From Candidatus Falkowbacteria bacterium (GTDB taxonomy: Bacteria; Patescibacteriota; Patescibacteriia; Patescibacteriales; UBA12465): a stretch of 64,000 bases of DNA. The translations under genes were made by a program, and so were the position numbers. Location: contig JBAXPN010000002.1 in the NCBI GenBank assembly GCA_037132255.1, forward strand, positions 12,433-76,432, in the 5' to 3' direction. The notes under the pieces were generated by a model, which saw only the letters and a list, made by a program, of their open reading frames with translations, did not search any database and had not been told where the DNA came from. This document shows positions 36,636 to 62,518 of this stretch, piece by piece; position 1 is the first letter of the stretch, and the number at the start of each line of letters is the position of its first letter.

Positions 36636-36703
36636 GTTTTGGCTTGTTTTTAAGGTTCTTCAAGTATTATAGCACTGGCTAGAAAAACAGGAAGAGAATT
36701 AAA

Positions 36704-36979
36704 TTAGATATTTTTCGACATGTAAATTGCAGTATGGTTATGCTTTTTTTCAGTTTTATATATCTTAAAACCAAATCGTTTATAATAATCCTCTAATCCC
36801 TTTTCCTTAGCTGATTTACTTTCTCTAAATTTGTAGTCAATGCTCAAATTTAAAGAATCGGCTAATCGTAGCATTTCTTTCTCTTGTGAATCTAGAGAAA
36901 GAATTTGCCGACTGCTGTCTTCGGTAGACTTTCGGCAGTAGAGGGCATATTTAATTGTTTGTTCATTTTTGTCGTTCAT
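36704..36979 (-). CDS. junction chimera: serine recombinase N-terminal catalytic fragment (aa 1-58) fused in frame to a GNAT acetyltransferase C-terminus (aa 59-91)
   Basis: KYALYCRKSTEDSSRQILSLDSQEKEMLRLA is the resolvase-domain start with the catalytic Ser. After ...SKSAK it continues EKGLEDYYKRFGFKIYK, which is GNAT motif B. Confidence 0.8.
   Translation of the reverse strand: MNDKNEQTIKYALYCRKSTEDSSRQILSLDSQEKEMLRLADSLNLSIDYKFRESKSAKEKGLEDYYKRFGFKIYKTEKKHNHTAIYMSKNI
36806..36811. repeat. att core copy (CTTAGC), left junction
   Basis: Codons GCT AAG (Ala57-Lys58) of ORF 36704..36979, identical to the hexamer at 42053-42058. Confidence 0.65.
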
Positions 36980-37004
36980 ATAATTATTATTTAATAATCA
37001 AAAA

Positions 37005-37072
37005 GGGCAGTCCTGATTCACCCAGCAAATAAACCAACCCAAAGGCTAATTTATCGTTTGGCAGAACTACCC
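37005..37072 (-). other. strand-specific imperfect palindrome between rep and the recombinase start (candidate single-strand origin or structured leader)
   Basis: Minus strand GGGTAGTTCTG (37072-37062) pairs with CAGGACTGCCC (37015-37005) over 11 bp. The two non-Watson-Crick positions are G-T on the minus strand but C-A on the plus strand. Confidence 0.35.
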
Positions 37073-37084
37073 ATTTCGAGCGAC

Positions 37085-37110
37085 AAAAGGTATTTTGTTA
37101 AAAAAATACC
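37085..37110 (-). terminator. intrinsic terminator after rep
   Basis: Minus strand: GGTATTT-TTTTAACAA-AATACC followed by TTTT. Confidence 0.5.
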
Positions 37111-37164
37111 TAAGGGTAATTGGTTTTTTGCTAGGTCAATACTGTTAATATATCAAAGAACAAG

Positions 37165-38112
37165 CTAAAAATCAATATTGTCTAAAGAATGGCCAGTTAG
37201 TATCTCGGCGATGTTCTCGTCCAGCTCTGGAAAATTAGACAGGTCATATTGCTGATAATTAAACCAGCGCATAAAATTTACTGGTTTGCCGATAGTGTCA
37301 TTAATATCGCTCTGGTTATATTCTGTTTCGCCGTCATACTTATAAACTAAAGATTCCGAGGGCAGTTTTGATTCCACGAGCGCCACGACTTCAACAAAAG
37401 AATTTTCTTGCGGTTTGAGCAGTCCTTTACTAGCGATGTATTTCTTTTGCCGAGGGCAGTTATTCTCAAAGACAGATTTTTGAATGTATTTTATAAAATA
37501 GAAAATAATCTTTTGCAGTTGCGCCTGGTTTTTTATTTTAGTAAAATTTCGGTCTTTTCCGCCGACCATTATTCTCCCTTGTCCCCAAATATCAAACATC
37601 TTTTTATAAATGTTTTTGATATAGGGCAGATTGAAGAAAATCATATGATAGTGAATCGCTCCTCGTTTTTGCAGTTCAAATACCGCTAGATATTTTAAGT
37701 TGCTTTGTTTTAAGTCTTTGCCCTCAATGCCATTGGTTTCATAATTGAGCCGTCTGATAAATTTGGTAAATTCATAGTTGGCTTTTTTAAGGTCTGTAAT
37801 ATTTTCGGCAAATGTTAGAGTTAGGGTAATCGGCAAATATGGTTTACCCTTTTCTTTAAACCATAAAAAACAATTAGCCATAATCAGCCGCTTAATCATT
37901 CTCTTGGCACGCCGAGCGGAGGACTTCAATATTTCTTCCTGGCTAGCCTTAGGCTTGGGGAATTTTTTAGCCTCTTCAATTTCTTCCTCGGTTTTGATAT
38001 GTCTGATTCTTCGCTCCAAATGAATATCCCGACCAAACTGATATATTTCCAAGAGCGACCCAGATTTTACCAGTTTACGATTGGATAAGTATTTATTATC
38101 TTGTTGTTTCAT
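37165..38112 (-). CDS. rep: rolling-circle replication initiator, HUH superfamily, two-tyrosine type (phiX174 gpA / Microviridae VP4-like motifs)
   Basis: Motif I is ITLTLTF, motif II is GAIHYHMIFF (HUH), and motif III is YFIKYIQK (Y-x-x-K-Y-x-x-K, cf. YVAKYVNK of phiX gpA). Confidence 0.75.
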   Translation of the reverse strand: MKQQDNKYLSNRKLVKSGSLLEIYQFGRDIHLERRIRHIKTEEEIEEAKKFPKPKASQEEILKSSARRAKRMIKRLIMANCFLWFKEKGKPYLPITLTLTFAENITDLKKANYEFTKFIRRLNYETNGIEGKDLKQSNLKYLAVFELQKRGAIHYHMIFFNLPYIKNIYKKMFDIWGQGRIMVGGKDRNFTKIKNQAQLQKIIFYFIKYIQKSVFENNCPRQKKYIASKGLLKPQENSFVEVVALVESKLPSESLVYKYDGETEYNQSDINDTIGKPVNFMRWFNYQQYDLSNFPELDENIAEILTGHSLDNIDF

Positions 38113-38131
38113 ATGTTTATTATTAATCTAG

Positions 38132-38143
38132 TTCTAATTAGAA
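38132..38143. promoter_or_regulatory. perfect 12-bp palindrome TTCTAATTAGAA upstream of rep
   Basis: Self-complementary 12-mer 20 nt upstream of the rep ATG (38112), overlapped by the direct repeat AGTTCT...AGTTCT. Confidence 0.4.
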
Positions 38144-38163
38144 GTTCTCTTAACAAGGATAAC

Positions 38164-38209
38164 TTTTTCTTTTCGGCTCCCCCTACGGGGGAACCGCCGA
38201 AAAGAAAAA
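38164..38209. repeat. 46-nt nested hairpin (candidate rolling-circle double-strand origin)
   Basis: Outer 14-bp stem TTTTTCTTTTCGGC / GCCGAAAAGAAAAA enclosing an inner hairpin TCCCCC-TAC-GGGGGA. Confidence 0.5.
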
Positions 38210-38214
38210 AAGAG

Positions 38215-38358
38215 TTATTCCTTATTAAAGAGAGAGTTATATAAATTAACTAAAGAGGTAAGAAAAGAATCAGCCTCATCGGGAGTTATTGCTCGCCCAT
38301 ACAATCCGCTAAAATATTCTTGGGCGTCGGATATCAGTTGGTCGTCATATTTAGTCAT
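38215..38358 (-). CDS. small hypothetical protein (47 aa) of the element
   Basis: Hand-translated as MTKYDDQLISDAQEYFSGLYGRAITPDEADSFLTSLVNLYNSLFNKE. It is below the ORF-track size cutoff and sits between a terminator and the origin-like hairpin. Confidence 0.3.
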   Translation of the reverse strand: MTKYDDQLISDAQEYFSGLYGRAITPDEADSFLTSLVNLYNSLFNKE

Positions 38359-38375
38359 GATTTCAGCATAACAAA

Positions 38376-38407
38376 AGAGCCTTGCGTAAAATTGCCCGCA
38401 AGGCTCT
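38376..38407 (-). terminator. intrinsic terminator of the 38427..39377 gene
   Basis: 11-bp stem AGAGCCTTGCG / CGCAAGGCTCT followed on the minus strand by TTTGTT. Confidence 0.6.
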
Positions 38408-38426
38408 TATAGATGTTTAGTTGTTT

Positions 38427-39377
38427 TTACAGGTATTTTGGATTAATCTTGCACCAACCTAATTGCTCCGTTGAGTTTAAAATAAAGTCGTTTATTTTAG
38501 TTTTATCATTTATTTTTGTATTTAAGTCTTCGCAAGCATGCCTGAATTTATTCCATCCCTTAATATTATCGTAATCCTCTTTAAGGAAATCCTCGGATAT
38601 TTCCGAGAAGTCGGCTGGTTCTGAAATATCGTCTTTAGAAAAAATACACTCTAAAATATAATGATCAGTTGGCCTACGTTTTTGTCTGGCAATTTTTATC
38701 TCTTGACCTCGGATATATAAGAGACTATTTTCAGAATCAAAGCTAATTGGCGATATCGGTTTATTGCCCTTTAAAAATTCTTTGGTGTCTAGTTCGCTAA
38801 AAATATAGGAGCTAACAACGGCTAAGCAGTTAAGACCATAAGCAGGGAGAACTAAAGAAAGAGATTTTTCTTCATTTTTATCTTTATATTTAAAAGGTAA
38901 TGAGGTTGTGGATATTTCTTTTATAACCTGGGCAATTTCTTTAGATTTATCAGGGTTATTTTTTAATTCTTCTTTAGCCTTGCTAACCGCCTCATGAATC
39001 ATGGCAAGATAGCCAAGGCTAACTGGCATTTGTAATTCTATAGGGCTAAAAGGCTGAGAATCTTTAATAACAGCGGAAGCAATATTATGTTCTTTAGCAA
39101 AAATATCTTTATCCGACCAGGTGTCGGGATTTTCTGGGTCAATGGGGGTTTTATTATCCAAACGAGCATCAAATTCTTCGTCAGTTATTTTAAGAAGAAT
39201 ATCCTTTTGACTTTCAAAATAGGCAAATTGGTCTTTCATTATTACCTTAACAGTTGAGTCATTTTTGATAAATTCAACAAATTCATAAATAACCAGGCTA
39301 CCATTAAAAGTGCCTAGTTTTTCTTGGTATTCTGCGATAAACGATTCTAGTTTATTTTTGATTTTATCGGGAGTCAT
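38427..39377 (-). CDS. hypothetical protein of the element (possible C-terminal winged-helix)
   Basis: 316-aa ORF. The C-terminal ...WNKFRHACEDLNTKINDKTKINDFILNSTEQLGWCKINPKY loosely resembles the recognition helix plus wing of wHTH regulators. The assignment is weak. Confidence 0.45.
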   Translation of the reverse strand: MTPDKIKNKLESFIAEYQEKLGTFNGSLVIYEFVEFIKNDSTVKVIMKDQFAYFESQKDILLKITDEEFDARLDNKTPIDPENPDTWSDKDIFAKEHNIASAVIKDSQPFSPIELQMPVSLGYLAMIHEAVSKAKEELKNNPDKSKEIAQVIKEISTTSLPFKYKDKNEEKSLSLVLPAYGLNCLAVVSSYIFSELDTKEFLKGNKPISPISFDSENSLLYIRGQEIKIARQKRRPTDHYILECIFSKDDISEPADFSEISEDFLKEDYDNIKGWNKFRHACEDLNTKINDKTKINDFILNSTEQLGWCKINPKYL

Positions 39378-39425
39378 AGGTCTATTTTGGCATAATTTAT
39401 GGTTGATGGCAATTTAACAAAGATA

Positions 39426-39454
39426 TTGACAAATTTTACTGTAAATAGAATAAT
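39426..39454 (+). promoter_or_regulatory. sigma70-like promoter TTGACA-N17-AATAAT
   Basis: TTGACA at 39426-39431 and AATAAT at 39449-39454, in the divergent intergenic region of the element. Confidence 0.4.
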
Positions 39455-39489
39455 ATAGATAGATTTATAAAAATTAATACTATTAATTT

Positions 39490-40698
39490 ATGGGAATCAA
39501 TTCATGGCCAATGCCAACAAACGGCGATAGCGATAATTTAGAAAATAAAGAGAAAGATTTGCCAAAACCAGGAGAAAAAATTATAGAAAAAAATGACGAG
39601 ATATTTAAATTAGAAAAAGCTAAGGGCTCTGGTGCGGGAGTTTTTACTAAGCTTTATGGGGAACAATTGGAAAATATTAAAGAAGATTTAAAAATGCATA
39701 ATGGCTATGTCGATTCTAAGTTCAGTGATTCATATAAAAATAAAGAATTAGGTATTGAAGTGGGGACTTATGATAAGGATTGGTGGGCAGGAAACCCACA
39801 CGCAGAAATGTTGTATCTTAATGGGGTATTTGTGATTAGAGATAAGGAACAAACATATAGCGCTGGTCCAGAATTTAAGTGGAAAGGCGGAGGAGGGGTT
39901 AAACATGAAAATCATATTTCTTCCATAGAAAGCGTAAAAATTGAAAATAATAGAATTCTTGCTGATATAAAATTTTGGGATGGAAGTATTAGAACGGAGG
40001 ATATAGGCGCTTATGAGCTTCCTCCGGTTTATACTGTATATAGGAATAATAAAACATACGATAACGCTAATTTACTAAAAATTGTTAAATCTTTAACTGG
40101 AGAGCATAAAATAGTAACCGATATTGAAAAAGGAATTTTTAATCAGGGTACAAGTATTGAGGACAATGACTATATAAAATCTATTCCTGAAAACGCCATT
40201 GTTATTACGGACACGGCAGCCTTAAAATCTCTGCCGGAGCTGGAACAGAAAAAAGTTATCAAAATAGAGGATTTTTTAGAAGGAAATTATGGTAGTTTGG
40301 GGTACTATGCAAACAAAATTGATAGTTACCCCTATCAGATAATAATATATAAGCCTGGGTGTGCAGACCACGTTATTCCTGAAGCACGTGAAGAAGGAAT
40401 AGAAAATTATGATGAAGATAAATATGCAGAATACTTAAAAAAACAATTAGTAGCAGCTTATCCAGGCAGAGTTTCATTAGATATCGTGGTAACTAGAGAC
40501 CCAAAAGATTTGAAAAAGTCACGTTTTAGAGTTATTGACAGGCATAGTTTAAGCGCTAAGCCGTCGGAGTATCTTGCTGGTAGCGATTTAATCCTTCCCC
40601 CAAGTGAAAATGAGAGTAAAGGCAATCAATCTTTGGATAAAAAAATAAACAATTTTTTAAAAAATGAAATAACCAAGATTGAAAAGGCAAAAGAATAG
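39490..40698 (+). CDS. hypothetical protein of the element
   Basis: 402-aa ORF with no recognised family. It is the only plus-strand gene in the element. Confidence 0.5.
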   Translation: MGINSWPMPTNGDSDNLENKEKDLPKPGEKIIEKNDEIFKLEKAKGSGAGVFTKLYGEQLENIKEDLKMHNGYVDSKFSDSYKNKELGIEVGTYDKDWWAGNPHAEMLYLNGVFVIRDKEQTYSAGPEFKWKGGGGVKHENHISSIESVKIENNRILADIKFWDGSIRTEDIGAYELPPVYTVYRNNKTYDNANLLKIVKSLTGEHKIVTDIEKGIFNQGTSIEDNDYIKSIPENAIVITDTAALKSLPELEQKKVIKIEDFLEGNYGSLGYYANKIDSYPYQIIIYKPGCADHVIPEAREEGIENYDEDKYAEYLKKQLVAAYPGRVSLDIVVTRDPKDLKKSRFRVIDRHSLSAKPSEYLAGSDLILPPSENESKGNQSLDKKINNFLKNEITKIEKAKE

Positions 40699-40705
40699 AT
40701 AGTAA

Positions 40706-42412
40706 TCACAGCAATTTCATTCCAAGTGCGTCCCACCCTCTCCGCACTGAGTTAAAATCGCTTTTATTTTCAATTTTAGAGAGGACATTATATGGCTCTT
40801 TGAAAGAAATATTAGCGATTTTTTTGTTATCAATAGTAGCGTTCCAAAGTACGTCAATTAGAGTATTTCGTTGTTCGTCAGGTTTTTGAGATAAAAACTC
40901 TTTTTGCATTGTTTTAGGCTCTAAAAACGCATTTCTTATCCGTTCCAAAGTAATATTATCTTGGCTAGATTTTTTGATTTCTAACTCTTGTAAGTCCTTA
41001 TTAATCAAAACGATTTCATTTTCTATTATCTGATTCTTAGCCTTATAGTCGCCCTCTAAAACAACTTTATCCAAGTAGCCGTCTATCAGAACTTTCTTGC
41101 GCTCTTCAAGCGTTTTGAGCCTATTTTGAAGACCGAGGATAGCCTCTTCTAGGTATGACAAGACATTTCCGCTTTCTCTTTGCTTAGCCCGATAAACGAG
41201 ATTAACGACTTTCTCGTCAAAGATTAAATTATCAAAAACTCCGTTCAATTCCGTTGATAGATTTTCCTCTTTGATATAGGCCTTATGCTCCTCGCAGACA
41301 TTCTTGCCATTCGTACAGTAGTAATATGTTAGCCGTCCCTTTTTCTTCGTGGCTGTTAGCAGACAGCCACACTTGGCACATCTTAACATACCCCTGAAAG
41401 CGAAAGGAATATTTTGTTTTTTGATATGGGATTTTTTAGTTAGCATTTCTTGTACCTCGTCAAATAACTTCTTAGAAATTAACGGCTCATGATTACCCTG
41501 ATAAATATTTCCGCTTTTTTCCATTATTCCGCAATAAAAAGACTCCGATAGCATTTTATGAATTTTGCTTTTGTGATATTTATTATGCGCCCGACTTCTA
41601 AACCCCTCTTTGAATAGTATATCGGCTATTTCCTTAACGCTATATTTCCCAGTCTTATACATTTCAAATATTTTAATGATATATTTTCCTCTCGCCTTAT
41701 CAATTATTATTTTACTATCTTTGTTCAAATATCCTAGAGGGGCTAAGTTAGGCCAACCGCCTTTTTCTAGTTTTGCTCTGATTCCTCGTTTTACATTTTT
41801 ACTCAAGTCCAAAATATACTGATTAGCCATTCCGCTTTCCACATTAAACAAGAGAGCATTATCGCCTGGCAAATATTGCCGTTCCATTGTTTGAATAATT
41901 TTTAATTCATTCTGTTGCAATAGCCATTGAATAGTTGCCGAGTCTATCGGGTTGCGACTTAATCTATCAATCTTCCAACAGATAACGCCCTGAATTTTAC
42001 CTCGCTTGATCAAATTGATAAGTTCGGAAAATTGCGGACGATTATCCGGCTTCTTAGCGCAATCGAGAAATATTTTTTTACTTCCCTTTTTTATTGCCGC
42101 CCCTTCAACAGCTTTAATCAGCAAAGTTCCGGCACCAAGGCTTCGGTATGTTTTTAGAACGGCTAATTTAAAAAAATATAGATTATTATTTTCATCAAAG
42201 AAATAGCGGACTGCTCCAATTATTTTACCATTCACCAAACAAACTAAAACAAAAAACTCCTTTTTTTGAAATTGCTCGTTAAGTTCTTTTGGCTCATGAG
42301 GTTTTGTTATAAGCGTAGCGTTTTTATTTAAAGCCCTATAGGCCCATTTCGTTATGGCCGTAATTCGAGAAAGTTCGCTAAATTTTGCTTTTCTAATTAT
42401 TATTCTGTTCAT
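40706..42412 (-). CDS. junction chimera: GNAT acetyltransferase N-terminus (120 aa) fused in frame to the body of a large serine recombinase (448 aa)
   Basis: MNRIIIRKAKF...LAVLKTYRSLGAGTLLIKAVEGAAIKKGSKKIFLDCAK (GNAT motif A) is followed by KPDNRPQFSELINLIKRGKIQGVICWKIDRLSRN (resolvase-domain end). Next come the recombinase domain, a zinc ribbon (CAKCGCLLTATKKKGRLTYYYCTNGKNVCEEH) and a coiled coil. The track ORF extends to a TTG at 42505, but the Met at 42412 fits the GNAT start. Confidence 0.8.
   Translation of the reverse strand: MNRIIIRKAKFSELSRITAITKWAYRALNKNATLITKPHEPKELNEQFQKKEFFVLVCLVNGKIIGAVRYFFDENNNLYFFKLAVLKTYRSLGAGTLLIKAVEGAAIKKGSKKIFLDCAKKPDNRPQFSELINLIKRGKIQGVICWKIDRLSRNPIDSATIQWLLQQNELKIIQTMERQYLPGDNALLFNVESGMANQYILDLSKNVKRGIRAKLEKGGWPNLAPLGYLNKDSKIIIDKARGKYIIKIFEMYKTGKYSVKEIADILFKEGFRSRAHNKYHKSKIHKMLSESFYCGIMEKSGNIYQGNHEPLISKKLFDEVQEMLTKKSHIKKQNIPFAFRGMLRCAKCGCLLTATKKKGRLTYYYCTNGKNVCEEHKAYIKEENLSTELNGVFDNLIFDEKVVNLVYRAKQRESGNVLSYLEEAILGLQNRLKTLEERKKVLIDGYLDKVVLEGDYKAKNQIIENEIVLINKDLQELEIKKSSQDNITLERIRNAFLEPKTMQKEFLSQKPDEQRNTLIDVLWNATIDNKKIANISFKEPYNVLSKIENKSDFNSVRRGWDALGMKLL
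42053..42058. repeat. att core copy (CTTAGC), right junction
   Basis: Codons GCT AAG (Ala150-Lys151 of the track ORF), exactly where the sequence switches from GNAT-like to recombinase-like. Confidence 0.65.
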
Positions 42413-42523
42413 ATATTTAAATAATAGCATATTCTTTCTGGCTCTTGCCAAAATCACTAGTTTTGCTAAGATTATCCGTTGCCAAAGGTCCTTTAAAAAT
42501 AACAATAAAAACAGATAAAAACC

Positions 42524-44203
42524 ATGAAAACAGACACGGAATTTGATAACCTGGCTAATCAGGTTGGGTACGGCCTCGCCGTTGTTCTCTTTGAAAAAAG
42601 ACTAACGGATAAATTCTTCTCCTCGCTTAACACAGGCGAGATTATTTCTATTGCCAGGCACGTACTCAATAACAAGCGCTTAATTAAATTACTAGGCCAA
42701 AGAGTTGCCCGTGTTGATTGGGAAATCAGAAACTTAGTTGAAACTTACAACAATTCAAAAACACCAACATTTCTCAAAGAGCAAATCTTTTCAAAAATTG
42801 AAAAGCTTACGCTCTCTTCTCGGGTCTGGCTAGATATTCAATCCTTGTCTAACAGCGCACTATTATCTGATATGGCGTGCAAAAAAGCATTAGCTTCAAT
42901 TGTAAGTTTCGAAGAAGGCCAGGCGGTATTTACTAAGGCTGCCGAACGGCACACCAGAAAAACAGATGAGATACTCGAAATGTTAACTCACCTGGCAACG
43001 ACTTATGATGACTGGGCTTGGATTATTGCAAGAGAAGTAAGCAGCGCATCTCTTCTTGAGAAATGTTTTAGCGCAGTTAATAATCTAACATTGAGTTACC
43101 AGGAATGGTGCGAAAAAGAAACTCATCTTCGCGGGGGAAGCAAAGTATGGCGCAGGTGGTATATACTTGTCACTAAAAAAAGAAGTGAGGCCGCCCTGAC
43201 TTTTAATGATTACAAAAACGAGCTTGATATTGTGTCTAGTGACTTCGGCCTCCCTGAAAAGCAAAAGGAGGCACAACTAGAGATTCGTAAACTTCTAAAA
43301 AAAGTAAAATTATTAGCAAGGTCTTTCAGCGATTGGTACGACCTATATTATTATGCGGATGAACAAGATAGACCGTCTCTAAAAAGAGCCTGTCTTTCTA
43401 AGTTGCGTCTTCTCGCTGTTGAAGCCGAAGACTATTATTTGCTCTATATAATACTGGGGAAAAGAAACAAGGCGGAAAAAGAGTCTTATCTAACAAAAAT
43501 AAGGTCTTTCAACCCTGACCACAACTTTTGGATTTACACTTATAAGCCAAAATGGTGTGACAAAAATTACCTCGATGTTGCTGAAAAATGTCTCGCCGCT
43601 TGTTCGGCTGATTCAGAGGCCTGGTTAAAAATCTTTCGGGAATCCGGTAATGACGAACCAATTAGAAAAATTGCCCTACAAAAACTTTCCAAGTCTCAAA
43701 ATACTGGAGACTATTGGTGCGGGATACACATTGTTTCTCGCAACTCGAAGGAATTAAGAAGTGTTTGTGAAAATAATCTTTTGGCGCTGAGCGCTCCCTG
43801 TTCCGAATGGAAAGATATCATGAATAAGTATAGCAGCACCGACAGATATGATCTTAGCAATATAATCTACAAAAAACTTGTTGAATCGGCTAAAACTTTT
43901 GACGACTGGCTCTATATACTTGAATCGCCCAAATCTCCTAATGCTAATACGGACAATAAAAAAGCGATTGTCCAATTAGGAGTTCTCGCTTCTTCGCTCA
44001 ATGAATACATAAATGTTTGTCTTTTGTCTGAGACTGGCTCTTCAGAATATAAAACGGCACGTAACAACATCTCATTACTCCGTTTGGATTTTAAGGAATG
44101 GCTACATGTATACAACACGGCTTCTAACGACTCAAAAAATCGTTGTGATAGGTCGGGTGGCAATCCATTAGCCGAACTAGCTCTGGCAAAGATGGCTCCA
44201 TAA
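42524..44203 (+). CDS. tandem-repeat protein, about 15 copies of a ~32-aa Trp/Tyr-anchored helical repeat
   Basis: The motif [LA]-x-[ST]-[FY]-x-[DE]-W-x-x-[IL]-[YF] recurs with the aromatic residue at aa 66, 102, 164, 195, 230, 271, 304, 336, 367, 398, 429, 462, 495 and 526. Examples are TYDDWAWI, SYQEWCEK, SFSDWYDLY, SEAWLKIF, CSEWKDIM, TFDDWLYIL and DFKEWLHVY. Confidence 0.6.
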   Translation: MKTDTEFDNLANQVGYGLAVVLFEKRLTDKFFSSLNTGEIISIARHVLNNKRLIKLLGQRVARVDWEIRNLVETYNNSKTPTFLKEQIFSKIEKLTLSSRVWLDIQSLSNSALLSDMACKKALASIVSFEEGQAVFTKAAERHTRKTDEILEMLTHLATTYDDWAWIIAREVSSASLLEKCFSAVNNLTLSYQEWCEKETHLRGGSKVWRRWYILVTKKRSEAALTFNDYKNELDIVSSDFGLPEKQKEAQLEIRKLLKKVKLLARSFSDWYDLYYYADEQDRPSLKRACLSKLRLLAVEAEDYYLLYIILGKRNKAEKESYLTKIRSFNPDHNFWIYTYKPKWCDKNYLDVAEKCLAACSADSEAWLKIFRESGNDEPIRKIALQKLSKSQNTGDYWCGIHIVSRNSKELRSVCENNLLALSAPCSEWKDIMNKYSSTDRYDLSNIIYKKLVESAKTFDDWLYILESPKSPNANTDNKKAIVQLGVLASSLNEYINVCLLSETGSSEYKTARNNISLLRLDFKEWLHVYNTASNDSKNRCDRSGGNPLAELALAKMAP

Positions 44204-59893: not shown

Positions 59894-62518
59894 ATGAAAC
59901 GAGAACTCGATAAAGCCTATAATCCGGGCGAAAATGAGGATAAAATCTATAAAAAGTGGGAAGAATCCGGGTATTTTAACCCGGATAATTTAGTATTAGA
60001 CCCTGATGCGAAAAGCTATACTATTGTTCTTCCGCCACCTAATATTACCGATAAATTGCATATGGGCCATGCGGCGACAGTTGCAATTGAAGATCTTCTT
60101 ATTCGCTATCATCGCCTCCTCGGGGAGCGTGCTTTATGGATTCCTGGAACTGACCATGCGGCGATAGCCACACAAAATGTCGTTGAAAAAAGGTTATTGA
60201 AAGAAAAAGGTAAAACGCGTCAAGATTTAGGCAAAGAAAAATTTTTAGAGGAGGTTTGGGCGTTCTTAAAAATTACCCAATCGACAATTCTTCATCAAGT
60301 TAAGAAGATGGGAGCCTCTTTAGACTGGTCGCGCCTCTCTTTTACGCTTGACGACGAGCGTCAATTAGCGGTTCGAACAATGTTTTCCGAAATGTATAAG
60401 GAGGGTGTAATTTATCGTGGCGATAGAATTGTAAATTGGTGTCCGCGTTGTCACTCAACCTTGGCCGATGACGAAGTCGAATATAAAGAACAACTCGCAA
60501 AGATATATACTTTTAAATATGATAAGAATTTTCCGCTTTCTATCTCAACTACGCGCCCGGAAACAAAACTGGGTGATACCGCTGTGGCAGTAAACCCAAA
60601 AGACGAAAGATATAAAAAATATATTGGGCAAGAATTCAAGGTAGTTTTTTGCGGCCAAGCACTAAATATTAAAATTATTGCCGATAGAAATGTTGAATCT
60701 GACTTTGGAACAGGCGCCCTTGGTGTTACACCGGCGCACTCAATGGTTGACTGGCAGATGGCGCAGGCCAATAATCTTCCGTTGATAAAAGTTATTAACG
60801 AAGAGGGCCAGATTCATCCTGGATTTGGAAAATTTTCCGGGCTAAGCGCCTTAGCGGCCCGCGAAGCAATCGTTAACGAGCTTCGAGAGCGTGGTTTATT
60901 AGAGAAAGAAGAAGATCTCACAAATAATTTATCTATCTGCTATCGATGCGGCACCGCTATTGAACCCTTAAGCTCAAAACAATGGTTTATTTCGGTTGAT
61001 AAAAAAATTGAGAGATTAGGAAATAAATCTTTAAAGGAAAAATCAATTGAAGCGGCGCAAAGTGAAGAAATCAAATTTATTCCGGAAAGATTTAATAAAA
61101 GATATCTTGATTGGATGAATAATCTTCACGATTGGTGTATTTCTCGGCAGATTTGGTTTGGTCACCAGATTCCGGTTTGGTATAAGGGAGAAGATATTTA
61201 TACTGGCCTTGAGGCGCCAAGTGGCGAGGGCTGGATTCAAGACCAAGACACACTTGATACCTGGTTTTCGTCTGGTATGTGGACGTTTTCGACTCTCGGT
61301 TGGCCGACAAACTATAATGATGCCAAAAAAAGTGGCGATTTAGCCAAGTTTCACCCGACGCAGGTTCTTGAAACCGGATATGAATTAATTACTTTATGGA
61401 TATCGAGAATGATAATGATGTCATTCTTCGCGCTCGATGAAATTCCTTTTTCTAAAGTTTATCTTCACGGAATGATATTAGATAAGGATGGTAAAAAAAT
61501 GTCGAAGTCGAAAGGAAATGGTATTGATCCTTTAGATATTATTGAAAAATATGGCACCGACGCGACCCGCCTTGCTCTGCTCATGGGAACAACCCCTGGT
61601 AATGATTCACGTTTTAGCGAAGATAAGGTTGAAGCAAAGCGTAATTTTATTAATAAGCTCTGGAATATTTCGAGATTTATTTTAACTAGTTGCGATGAAA
61701 AGTTTTATGCAGCGGCAAGTGAAAAAGCGCCACAAGAAAAAAGTATAGCTGATACTTGGATTTTGGGAGAAATGTCTAAACTAATAAAAAACACGACGGA
61801 AAGATTTAATAGCTTCGAATTTTCTTTGGCTGCGGAAGAGCTAAATGATTTTACTTGGAATAAATTGGCCGATTGGTATTTAGAGATTGCTAAAGTTGAA
61901 AAAGACAAGGAAGAAATTTTAATATATTTATTGAAAAACTTATTAATTCTCTGGCACCCGTTTATTCCGTTCGTAACTGAAGCTATTTGGGAGAGCTTTA
62001 ATGACAATGTTTTAATGGTGGCCAAGTGGCCAGGCGCCGAAGAGAAAGAAGTCTTTCTAAATAATGACATAAATCTAATTCAAGATATTATTGTCGCAAT
62101 TCGTAATGCCCGCAGTGAGAATAAAATTGAACCGTCAAAAAAAATTGACGCAATTATTTATGCCGGCAAATCGACTCCCCTTATTTTAAGACAGGCGGAA
62201 ATAATTAAGAGTTTAAAAACCGGCATTGCTAGCCTTGAAGTTTATGAGAAGGGAGAAAAAATAGATTCAGCTATTATGTTACCCCTGGGGGAGATTGAAA
62301 TATATTTACTCGGCGCAATTGATGGTGAAAAAGAAAAAACACGCTTGATAAAAGAGAAGGCTAATCTAGAAAAATTAATTTCACTCCAGGCGCAGAAATT
62401 AAATAACGCCGATTTCGTTTCCCGCGCTCCGGAAAAAATAGTTACAGCCGAAAAAGAAAAATTAAATTCCTATGAACAGGAATTATCAAAAATAGTTAAT
62501 ATAATATCTAGCCTATGA
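59894..62518 (+). CDS. valS: valine--tRNA ligase
   Basis: PPPNITDKLHMGHA (HIGH-type motif), KMSKSKGN, an editing domain and a C-terminal coiled coil. Length is 874 aa. Confidence 0.95.
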   Translation: MKRELDKAYNPGENEDKIYKKWEESGYFNPDNLVLDPDAKSYTIVLPPPNITDKLHMGHAATVAIEDLLIRYHRLLGERALWIPGTDHAAIATQNVVEKRLLKEKGKTRQDLGKEKFLEEVWAFLKITQSTILHQVKKMGASLDWSRLSFTLDDERQLAVRTMFSEMYKEGVIYRGDRIVNWCPRCHSTLADDEVEYKEQLAKIYTFKYDKNFPLSISTTRPETKLGDTAVAVNPKDERYKKYIGQEFKVVFCGQALNIKIIADRNVESDFGTGALGVTPAHSMVDWQMAQANNLPLIKVINEEGQIHPGFGKFSGLSALAAREAIVNELRERGLLEKEEDLTNNLSICYRCGTAIEPLSSKQWFISVDKKIERLGNKSLKEKSIEAAQSEEIKFIPERFNKRYLDWMNNLHDWCISRQIWFGHQIPVWYKGEDIYTGLEAPSGEGWIQDQDTLDTWFSSGMWTFSTLGWPTNYNDAKKSGDLAKFHPTQVLETGYELITLWISRMIMMSFFALDEIPFSKVYLHGMILDKDGKKMSKSKGNGIDPLDIIEKYGTDATRLALLMGTTPGNDSRFSEDKVEAKRNFINKLWNISRFILTSCDEKFYAAASEKAPQEKSIADTWILGEMSKLIKNTTERFNSFEFSLAAEELNDFTWNKLADWYLEIAKVEKDKEEILIYLLKNLLILWHPFIPFVTEAIWESFNDNVLMVAKWPGAEEKEVFLNNDINLIQDIIVAIRNARSENKIEPSKKIDAIIYAGKSTPLILRQAEIIKSLKTGIASLEVYEKGEKIDSAIMLPLGEIEIYLLGAIDGEKEKTRLIKEKANLEKLISLQAQKLNNADFVSRAPEKIVTAEKEKLNSYEQELSKIVNIISSL

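Follow-up and report, generated by a model that had tools for sequence, protein, structure and literature searches.

A circular element of ~5.24 kb appears to have entered a GNAT gene of its host through a reciprocal, conservative exchange at a hexamer that both carried, a reading that the data support, in the 64,000-nucleotide stretch of Candidatus Falkowbacteria DNA analyzed here (the window). We give about even odds (roughly 0.5) to the view that this was a rare off-target recombination between two non-cognate sites, catalyzed by a large serine recombinase (LSR), which removed the enzyme's catalytic serine and trapped the element.

An insertion between two chimeric genes

The insert occupies positions 36812..42052 of the window (minus strand; 5,241 bp) and is plasmid-like; its boundaries were set by a metagenome contig, L007, that carries the empty site. 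In minus-strand sense it is flanked at both ends by GCTAAG, one copy (36806..36811, minus strand) lying where the N-terminal part of the LSR meets the C-terminal part of the GNAT, and the other (42053..42058, minus strand) where the N-terminal part of the GNAT meets the C-terminal part of the LSR. The hexamer is also the 6-bp overlap between the two alignments of L007 to the window (43938..42053 and 36811..36648). A 153-aa GNAT gene and a 506-aa LSR gene were thereby split into two in-frame chimeras, and the exchange is reciprocal and perfectly conservative at both junctions; the point of exchange on the element side, at codon 57/58 of the element's own serine-recombinase ORF, is confirmed. 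The earlier note, made from sequence alone, had proposed an element integrated into a host GNAT gene with both junction ORFs open and in frame, and the empty site on L007 bears this out. The ORFs and sequences that it described at 36704-42505 are as stated, with the end at 42505 being merely a TTG extension of the long ORF.

The long chimeric ORF (40706..42412, minus strand; 568 aa from its ATG) joins GNAT residues 1-120 to LSR residues 59-506. Pfam places Acetyltransf_1 at residues 35-120 and Resolvase, from profile position 22, at residues 101-220, followed by Recombinase and Zn_ribbon_recom, so that the protein is without the nucleophile serine and retains the remaining catalytic domain, the recombinase domain and the zinc ribbon. 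It is identical to P0005, a protein from a Candidatus Falkowbacteria MAG with a GNAT annotation, to residues 119-568 of which residues 57-506 of the LSR align by BLASTP. The short chimeric ORF (36704..36979, minus strand; 91 aa; identical to P0148) consists of LSR residues 1-57/58 and the last 33 residues of the GNAT; it matches the N-terminus of Resolvase (profile positions 2-47), with an RKS(18)T nucleophile motif, and ends in the GNAT tail. Catalytic Ser18 is thus separated from the DNA-binding domains of the LSR, and in the window it is found on the 91-aa fragment only. The HMM search suggested in the earlier note located both the resolvase N-terminus in the short ORF and the GNAT-to-Resolvase switch in the long one. 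As that note had also predicted, exchanging the halves at GCTAAG restores complete profile matches: a 153-aa GNAT covering positions 14-116 of 116 of Acetyltransf_1 (PF00583; 14-102 in the chimera alone), and a 506-aa LSR covering positions 2-145 of 145 of Resolvase (PF00239; E 7e-23), with Recombinase (PF07508; E 1.7e-15) and zinc ribbon (PF13408; E 3.5e-7) matches that both exceed the curated cut-offs. Among PDB structures, the N-terminal domain of the LSR matches TP901-1 integrase and the recombinase of a conjugative transposon. By eye, residues ~390-450 look heptad-rich, a candidate for the directionality-controlling coiled coil that LSRs carry within the zinc ribbon domain.

Intact forms of both genes exist elsewhere. 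L007 encodes an uninterrupted 153-aa GNAT (P0121) at 99% identity, and across the junction the contig agrees with the predicted attB at all 121 bases compared; intact GNAT orthologues measure 152-156 aa, and none of the 26 other GNAT homologues listed is interrupted at this site. In every related locus that covers the crossover point (about 60), the recombinase runs through it colinear and unbroken, and the codon-57/58 split was found in none of the 118 other protein clusters aligned, being restricted to the window lineage (P0005, P0148 and contig L026). Of the searches suggested earlier, that for the empty site succeeded. As for the circular junction, the recombinase is uninterrupted in relatives, and the exact 32-mer predicted for this element's own intact site is absent from JGI metagenome contigs, and a degenerate 29-base version had no match in IMG/VR. 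Several contigs (e.g., L045 and L015) bear the family's attP undivided; terminal overlaps were present in none of the contigs fetched. The split gene is without decay, and on this sequence evidence the insertion in the window lineage is recent.

The element and the usual target of its family

The insert is probably a small integrative rolling-circle plasmid encoding a Rep and an LSR. In the circular form the order would be canonical attP, a 402-aa gene on the opposite strand, a 316-aa gene, a 47-aa ORF, Rep and LSR, colinear with relatives L002 and L003. Relatives share 63-97% identity and come from Patescibacteria, and the family is confined to Patescibacteria/CPR genomes. Rep (37165..38112, minus strand; 315 aa) is a rolling-circle (HUH-type) initiator that matches Pfam REP_ORF2-G2P (PF23343; 6e-17), phrog_3419 (2e-25; described as "rolling circle DNA replication initiation") and, weakly, RepSA in Pfam; related Rep proteins come from small Firmicutes plasmids and a Spiroplasma phage, and by tblastn it matches Rep genes on Geobacillus and Brevibacillus plasmids of 1.5-2.2 kb. 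The 47-aa ORF (38215..38358, minus strand) and the 3′ part of the gene for a 316-aa cargo protein (38427..39377, minus strand) lie within a backbone conserved among relatives, and the gene for a 402-aa cargo protein (39490..40698, plus strand) belongs to the variable part of the element, with no DNA match in most relatives. None of these three has a Pfam or PHROG match, and the same searches detected no Xis or transfer gene. An inovirus- or plectrovirus-like prophage was considered and rejected, as the resemblance to plectrovirus proteins is limited to Rep and the three other ORFs show no match to a pI/Zot-type ATPase or coat protein, of which remote homologues could escape these profiles. A developmentally excised element of the skin/SpoIVCA or XisF type was likewise rejected, because the element's sole recombinase gene is itself split, with its nucleophile apart from the remainder.

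By the evidence of their junction sequences, members of this family insert right at the 3′ terminus of tRNA-Ser genes, which may have any of four anticodons. In 30 different junctions (gct, 12; cga, 8; tga, 5; gga, 5) the LSR ORF continues at its 3′ end into antisense tRNA-Ser. The same comparison places the family's attP inside the last ~12 codons of the LSR ORF, and the LSR is presumably the enzyme that performs the insertion. In the window the canonical attP is intact and unused (40718..40775, minus strand, approximate outer limits; ...AAAAGCGATTTTAACTCAGT GCGG AGAGGGTGGGACGCACTTGGAATG), and its crossover falls within GCGG at 40745..40742 (minus strand), exactly where relatives leave the window sequence for antisense tRNA-Ser. 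The right (P′) arm is conserved and marks the far end (attL) of integrated relatives. Reconstruction of attL and attR at many loci shows conservative junctions and a short core, identical in the two sites and lying within GCGG. In the attB half-site TTCGAAC occupies positions 16-22, and in the attP half-site TTGGAAC occupies positions 21-27, a 5-bp offset of the kind expected for the zinc-ribbon-domain motif of LSR att sites; the left flanks of attB are without consensus, and non-tRNA targets are also used via the normal attP. Third-position conservation in the true attP region is 0.92-0.95, against a gene mean of 0.79. Because attP lies inside the 3′ end of the ORF, integration swaps only the last few codons and integrated copies read through the antisense tRNA, gaining variable tails (0-103 aa); in an alignment of 119 homologue clusters, homology stops at about residue 484-506, mostly 494-500, before such tails begin. 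The proposal that attP is the codon-57/58 site within the recombinase thus fails for the family, whose 30 junctions use the 3′ end of the LSR and whose canonical site survives in the window; that attP lies inside the recombinase ORF was correct, but at its extreme 3′ end and not at codon 57.

The two sites of the exceptional crossover

The element-side site at LSR codons 56-58 (site X) varies freely at synonymous positions in relatives, where it most often reads GCCAAGAAACCAG and the hexamer is GCCAAG in most; third-position conservation around codons 51-65 (0.82-0.84) is near the gene mean. Scores of the site with the right-arm matrices fall in the top 0.3-0.6% of window positions, mostly owing to the shared hexamer, and rank 10-49 among 10,482 positions within the element, and its left arm has no resemblance to the left arm of attP (rank 50,496 of 127,938). 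In a comparison with 19 relatives, two synonymous changes (AAG and CCG) give the window's X the highest core score. X looks, from its sequence, like a weak imitation of attP and not like the family's attP. Nor does self-splitting appear to be the layout of the element, as had been suggested, for the split is seen solely in the window lineage and X is not conserved at synonymous sites. Compared with its relatives, the split LSR has no private substitutions that hint at a new specificity.

The right half of the GNAT-side site (site Y) reproduces the acceptor/T-arm half-site of tRNA-Ser that forms the normal attB, with equal spacing (GC..AG....AGGGATT.GA). A weight matrix derived from the right halves of 15 natural attB sites puts Y 5th among 127,956 window positions, with register and orientation exactly those of the crossover. 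The four positions that score higher are two real tRNA/tmRNA 3′ ends, one chance match in a coding gene and the attP of the element itself; without the shared hexamer Y ranks 72nd. The likeness was spotted before the test, and with ~8-20 combinations of half-site and register examined, the corrected significance is ~1e-3 to 1e-2. This attB-like right half is the one canonical att-site feature present at the window's own junctions. At core positions 1, 2, 5 and 6 (GC..AG), X and Y both agree with the cognate core; at positions 3-4 the cognate core has GG and both sites have TA.

Origin of the insertion

Because Y mimics the tRNA-Ser attB half-site in exact register, we favor an off-target reaction of the LSR. 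The circular element would have recombined once, conservatively and reciprocally, between X in the LSR gene and Y in the GNAT gene, each carrying GCTAAG, with the element's own LSR or that of a co-resident relative as the probable catalyst. Core positions 3-4 would act as the central dinucleotide, whose canonical placement is confined to within GCGG; the bases that match the cognate core, together with the shared TA, would then account for the 6-bp identity, and, as attB left flanks lack a consensus, a single good half-site may suffice. Against an LSR reaction, a wild-type enzyme normally requires one cognate attP to recombine with a pseudo-site, so that joining two non-cognate sites is rare, and X is a poor site, its left arm unlike attP and its right arm weak. 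The main rival, which we regard as possible but the less probable account, is illegitimate recombination by the host, either short-homology-dependent or mediated by topoisomerase/gyrase, in which a single reciprocal crossover took place at the GCTAAG microhomology, the LSR was uninvolved and the likeness to tRNA-Ser is coincidental. In its favor are the restriction of the event to one lineage, the bypassed canonical attP and an X with no DNA-level conservation, a left arm unlike attP and a right arm that is weakly attP-like. The 6 bp shared also exceed what an LSR would demand (core identity of 2 bp), and in-frame fusions have a prior of ~1 in 3 with orientation fixed (1 in 6 overall). However, a chromosomal partner picked at random would not be expected to rank as high as Y, the cognate core has the same base at four of the six shared positions, and both junctions are perfectly conservative.

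A programmed attP at codon 57/58 with the GNAT site as its attB, which would give bacteria a serine-type equivalent of the "suicidal" integrases of archaea, has in its favor the clean, reciprocal in-frame chimeras, the empty site, the intact recombinases of relatives and the resemblance of the GNAT site to an LSR site. The family survey nevertheless largely refutes it, and we consider it very improbable: the split and the GNAT interruption recur in none of the other loci, clusters or homologues counted above, synonymous variation falls right at the crossover (with GCCAAG in most relatives), third-position conservation there is near average when the true attP stands far above it, the LSR is without private residues, and a complete, family-typical attP lies unused 1.3 kb away. 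Least probable of all is an artifact of assembly or binning, in which an assembler made the junctions from a free plasmid and an intact chromosome. The source is a metagenome-assembled genome, and short-read assemblers can yield chimeric contigs; however, the shared sequence, at just 6 bp, is much shorter than any assembly k-mer, each junction is the exact reciprocal of the other, and the right-hand (X-left/Y-right) junction recurs with 100% identity over ~500 bp, encoding the same 91-aa ORF, in L026, an independent assembly from another sample, which argues against misassembly.

The Resolvase, Recombinase and zinc-ribbon architecture of the enzyme is common to LSRs such as phiC31, Bxb1, TP901-1 and A118/LI integrase, as are conservative crossover at a short common core and a distal half-site motif offset by 5 bp. 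The family differs in having the 3′ end of tRNA-Ser as its cognate attB, since tRNA 3′-end targeting is more typical of tyrosine integrases, and in carrying attP within the LSR ORF, at its 3′ end; the crossover in the window differs further in involving no cognate partner site at all. In phiC31-type pseudo-site recombination and rearrangements in heterologous genomes, partly att-like sites are joined at precise junctions with a matching central dinucleotide; an off-target LSR reaction here would likewise have acted on partly att-like sequences with precise junctions, but with both sites non-cognate, where one cognate partner is usual, and in the natural host. Small size, a rolling-circle Rep and site-specific integration at a tRNA 3′ end are shared with integrative plasmids of the pSAM2 type (actinomycete AICEs), which have a tyrosine integrase; here the integrase is of the serine type, no Xis or transfer gene was detected and the host belongs to the Patescibacteria. 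Pseudo-sites or multiple targets are documented for LSRs (PMC10083194).

Self-disrupting integrases are so far known only in archaea (reviewed in PMC8371274). As in the SSV1/pTN3/pT26-2-type elements, the recombinase of the present element is left as N- and C-terminal fragments at the element's ends, and an intact recombinase in trans should then be required (PMC8371274). Those enzymes, however, are archaeal tyrosine recombinases with an obligatory, conserved split (PMC8371274), whereas here a bacterial serine recombinase was split in a single exceptional event and the regular attP swaps the last ~10 codons only. The "suicidal" layout was thus rejected for this element, whose family members are not split at codon 57/58, whose internal site has no excess DNA conservation and whose recombinase, in a Candidatus Falkowbacteria host, is not an SSV-type tyrosine enzyme. 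A programmed internal attP, if true, would be new, since self-disruption has been reported from archaea only (PMC8371274). On the reading that we favor, the insertion would instead be a one-off, off-target accident, because the family normally enters tRNA-Ser genes via a different site, still intact here, and the element would be unable to excise by itself and hence probably trapped.

Chimeric genes, the empty site and the element

Consistent with the earlier note, which had read two minus-strand ORFs as reciprocal GNAT acetyltransferase/serine-recombinase chimeras, Pfam found the claimed domain order in both: the long ORF (42412..40706) carries Acetyltransf_1 over residues 35–120 and then a serine recombinase without its first ~57 residues (Resolvase from profile position 22 on, Recombinase, and Zn_ribbon_recom), and the short ORF (36979..36704) runs from a recombinase N-terminus covering Resolvase profile positions 2–47 into a GNAT tail. 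When the halves are exchanged at the shared hexamer GCTAAG, the predicted 153-aa GNAT and 506-aa large serine recombinase (LSR) both emerge with the expected domains; the GNAT matches Acetyltransf_1 positions 14–116 of 116, reaching the profile end, and the LSR has a complete catalytic domain. The ORFs stand as first drawn, but the proposed feature end at 42505 is merely a TTG extension, the GNAT starting with the ATG at 42412 as its intact orthologue does. At the sequence level the reconstituted enzyme answers to the definition of an LSR, and among solved structures only its N-terminal domain has counterparts, in TP901-1 integrase and in a conjugative-transposon recombinase. In the window, the nucleophile Ser18 lies on a 91-aa fragment and the DNA-binding domains are joined to GNAT residues 1–120; both chimeric products should lack catalytic competence, and the GNAT gene is disrupted. 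The in-frame outcome had a prior of ~1 in 3 and needs no special explanation.

The insertion is real and cleanly documented, with its empty site in hand. The intact GNAT that the note had proposed seeking in other genomes and metagenomes was recovered by homologue search as P0121, a 153-aa protein 99% identical to the reconstituted GNAT over its full length. Its contig, L007, aligns to window positions 43938..42053 and then 36811..36648 with a 6-bp overlap, and is identical to the predicted empty site across the 121 bases printed over the junction; this break defines the insert as 36812..42052, 5,241 bp. An origin of the chimeric junctions in assembly can be given practically no weight, as the junction between the LSR N-part and the GNAT C-part recurs in L026, an independent assembly from another sample, with 100% identity for ~500 bp around it, which excludes misassembly. 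The database entry of the long chimera, P0005, places the host as a Candidatus Falkowbacteria MAG. The reconstituted LSR has 2,019 homologues, the best of them 95–80% identical over 97–99% of the query and reading uninterrupted through FRESKSAK|KPDNRPQF. The expectation of an element circle with an intact ~506-aa recombinase was thus borne out for the recombinase in relatives, but the intact crossover site of this exact element was not found: a 32-mer for it had no match in JGI metagenome contigs, a degenerate 29-base version had none in IMG/VR, and no circular contigs were present among the fetched loci.

Two side observations concern these contigs. Positions 1–306 of L026 have clearly diverged from window 37323..37018 in the 3' end of Rep, the element's rolling-circle replication (RCR) initiator, and in the Rep–LSR spacer; from a point ahead of the LSR start, across the junction and on into the host sequence, contig and window are 100% identical. 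This mosaic suggests either that element variants have recombined or that the short contig is a chimera of strains. Adjoining the GNAT is a 559-aa gene (42524..44203, plus strand) without a Pfam match, which shares ~56–84% DNA identity with L007 3–1415, as against 94–100% for the adjacent GNAT and intergenic DNA, and would appear to be either fast-evolving or replaced.

Among the cargo genes, a function can be recognised for Rep alone, which matches PF23343 as well as an RCR initiator in PHROG. Its relatives are Rep proteins of 1.5–2.2-kb Firmicutes plasmids and of a Spiroplasma phage; neither Pfam nor PHROG gave a match for the 316-aa, 402-aa, and 47-aa ORFs. Because no morphogenesis ATPase was found in the element, we classify it as an integrative RCR plasmid and not as an inovirus. 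Its GC content (~0.28–0.38) is no different from that of its flanks and gives no compositional signal. Some relatives carry an HNH gene (L003, 9559–9969) or extra DNA (L015, 2017–2357) between Rep and LSR, or a GIY-YIG gene among the cargo (L002, 1187–1561), all of which may be nested selfish genes.

The usual target of the family

The C-terminal tails of close LSR relatives differ after ...KIENKSDFxSVRR, and many read RDSNP, the peptide of an antisense tRNA T-arm. In L001 and L003–L006, the last LSR codons overlap a complete tRNA-Ser that ARAGORN called on the opposite strand, and most of the loci retrieved from GTDB genomes and from JGI metagenomes show this overlap too. The 82 loci together gave 30 distinct tRNA-Ser junctions (gct 12, cga 8, tga 5, gga 5), with all four anticodons represented among the targets; distant relatives (63–67% identity) use tRNA-Gln. 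The canonical attP reads ...AAAAGCGATTTTAACTCAGT-GCGG-AGAGGGTGGGACGCACTTGGAA..., with crossover confined to GCGG; the right half of attB is GCGGAGAGGNNGGGATTCGAACC, and the far end of integrated relatives bears the conserved arm GCGGAGAGGGTGGGACGCACTTGGAAYGG. TTCGAAC occupies positions 16–22 of the attB half-site and TTGGAAC positions 21–27 of the attP half-site, and such a 5-bp offset is what sets P-type half-sites of LSRs apart from B-type ones, which supports the LSR as the enzyme responsible for tRNA-Ser integration. Homology among 119 homologue clusters ends at ~residue 484–506, mostly 494–500, and gives way to tails of 0–103 aa; with attP at the extreme 3' end of the LSR ORF, integration swaps the last codons only. 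The attP lies within the last ~12 LSR codons in the window (40718..40775, minus strand), L001 (2198–2314), L003 (11453–11608), and many other loci, and integrated copies read through the antisense tRNA-Ser into tails such as GRDSNP..., the free-form tail being GWDALGMKLL.

Several loci depart from this pattern. A recurrent alternative target, GGGATTTCCGCC, begins like a tRNA-Ser 3' end with an odd T-loop, GCGGAGAGGGAGGGATTTCCGCCCTC... (L002 7986–8090, L018 730–830, L020 11469–11567, L028 1979, L048 2628, and L051 1253); it received no ARAGORN call, nor, in L002, L018, and L020, an Rfam call at the gathering threshold, and may represent a tRNA that is unusual or interrupted by an intron, or else a tRNA-like gene of Candidate Phyla Radiation (CPR) bacteria. 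Four loci at 63–67% identity (L058, L059, L060 at 1726, and L066 at 1182) share the architecture with a junction core of GCTC, which lies in tRNA-Gln in L060 and L066; the enzyme and its target seem to have shifted in concert. Tandem attL-type arms and isolated LSR 3' remnants beside tRNA-Ser genes (L013 3490/4255/4885, L017 4349/5937, L023 145/754, L018 936/1837, L025 10000–10257, L077, and L078) indicate that family members have inserted and decayed at these loci more than once. In L010 (JBAZTY010000003.1, 183 kb), a copy of the element at the contig start (1–2820) leads into a variant P'-like arm, GCGGGGAGTTCGGGACTATATCAGAACTG, and then into HD-domain, DUF2779, and DNA-methyltransferase genes, and may represent a larger element or a further non-tRNA insertion.

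Origin of the insertion in the GNAT gene

The canonical attP is undivided in the window (~40718..40775), and this copy did not integrate through it. The earlier note had placed an attP inside the recombinase ORF; the family does keep its attP there, at the 3' end, but not at codon 57, which is split in no other lineage (0 of ~60 other loci spanning the N-terminus, and 0 of 118 other aligned clusters). A programmed internal attP at codon 57/58 is accordingly very improbable. The crossover site in the LSR gene (X) reads TCG GCC AAG AAA CCA in most relatives and TCA GCT AAG AAG CCG in the window, and third-position conservation is near the gene average at X as against 0.92–0.95 at the true attP region; X is not constrained as DNA. 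None of the 26 other GNAT homologues listed is interrupted at the position of the host crossover site (Y). Compared with 31 close relatives, the split LSR carries no amino-acid change of its own; the insertion is recent, and the enzyme has not evolved a new specificity. As a separate observation, LSR codons ~61–80 (~42045..41985, minus strand), CGTCCGCAATTTTCCGAACTTATCAATTTGATCAAGCGAGGTAA, are almost invariant in DNA, with the highest third-position conservation (0.92–0.95) outside the attP region, the codon 421–445 region excepted; this is largely kept in the 75%-identical L022 and less so in L023.

What, then, joined X to Y? When the whole window was scanned with weight matrices built from natural half-sites, the right half of Y, GCTAAGGAAAAGGGATTAGAGGA, ranked 5 of 127,956 for the attB right-half matrix in the exact crossover register and orientation, below the tmRNA 3' end, the tRNA-Leu 3' end, one chance coding-gene match, and the element's own attP; leaving out the GC anchor lowered its rank to 36th and leaving out the entire hexamer to 72nd, and because the likeness had been seen before testing, the corrected significance is ~1e-3 to 1e-2. 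There was no consensus among 44 unique attB left flanks, and the LSR seems to read attB mainly via the tRNA half, in which case pseudo-attB sites would be easy to come by. The signal at X is weaker: its right arm falls in the top 0.3–0.6% of window positions for right-arm matrices (rank 10–49 of 10,482 within the element), its left arm bears no resemblance to the attP left-arm matrix, and the window's variant of X outscores that of each of 18 relatives owing to two synonymous changes. Core positions 1, 2, 5, and 6 (GC..AG) of both sites match the cognate core; in the proposed reaction, positions 3–4 would be the central dinucleotide (GG in the cognate, TA in X and Y) and would need to match between partners only, which would account for the 6-bp identity. 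We therefore put an off-target reaction of the LSR at about even odds and favour it over host illegitimate recombination, which would likewise employ the hexamer, as a microhomology, and which we regard as possible with a lower probability.

Other routes were considered and rejected. Two-step routes, with a rearrangement after canonical integration or two deletions after integration of a dimer, were dismissed by reasoning, since they could yield the observed circular permutation only by a pair of independent, precise deletions that both end at this one hexamer; Rep-mediated (HUH) integration is without support, the junctions being reciprocal and conservative. A likeness of the left halves of X and Y to attB left flanks, a 7/8 match to one flank, GTAAATCT, was cherry-picking, as both rank in the thousands and the 44-flank matrix holds no information. 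Reading X as attL-like and Y as attR-like relied on the attP left-arm matrix, for which Y-left ranks 196 of 127,938, but anchor bases and AT-richness supply much of that score. Recurrent interruption of GNAT homologues was likewise set aside, P0143, P0145, P0146, and P0147 being N-truncated, frameshifted, or possibly incomplete and none a chimera. The attB half-site matrix has its best match outside tRNAs at 61221..61243 (plus strand), GTGGCGAGGGCTGGATTCAAGAC; this site lies unoccupied inside a protein-coding gene, and we take it to be chance.

Consequences for the element and its family

The element should be trapped unless a related LSR acts in trans, a doubtful rescue given hybrid, non-cognate sites. 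One could also envision that the family houses its attachment biology within the recombinase ORF by design, which we consider improbable. With the regular attP in the last ~12 codons, each integration rewrites the LSR C-terminus with an antisense-tRNA tail, and by analogy with the integration-dependent immunity of mycobacteriophages, this swap could sense the integrated versus the free state and affect stability or directionality. In the window copy, the LSR would also be able to recombine at a secondary site in its own gene, a "suicidal" integration, and the GNAT–LSR fusion, lacking the nucleophile and retaining DNA-binding domains, might serve as a site-blocking immunity factor. A review holds "suicidal" integrases to be exclusive to archaea (PMC8371274); the recombinase gene is likewise split in those tyrosine integrases, but here the split is not the family's regular mode, and the defining feature of that class is absent. 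That LSRs use pseudo-sites and multiple targets is well documented (PMC10083194); the unusual point in this case is the lack of a cognate site on either side. This is an accident befalling a conventional kind of element and not a new class of recombination system.

Novelty at the family level is modest: a CPR-restricted Rep+LSR family that targets tRNA-Ser, with attP in the last LSR codons and antisense-tRNA tails, on which we found no publication in the full-text literature on serine recombinases and Patescibacteria/Candidate Phyla Radiation, where a cryptic-inovirus paper and its preprint were the sole matches. To our knowledge, few mobile elements have been described in Patescibacteria, and these small elements now form a defined family there with well-defined attP/attB pairs. 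Recognition of attB mainly through one half-site may be of interest in mining LSRs for genome engineering. As a natural case of a serine-integrase element that landed off-target and destroyed its own integrase, the window copy offers a concrete picture of mobile-element fixation and of a putative LSR pseudo-site in its native host.
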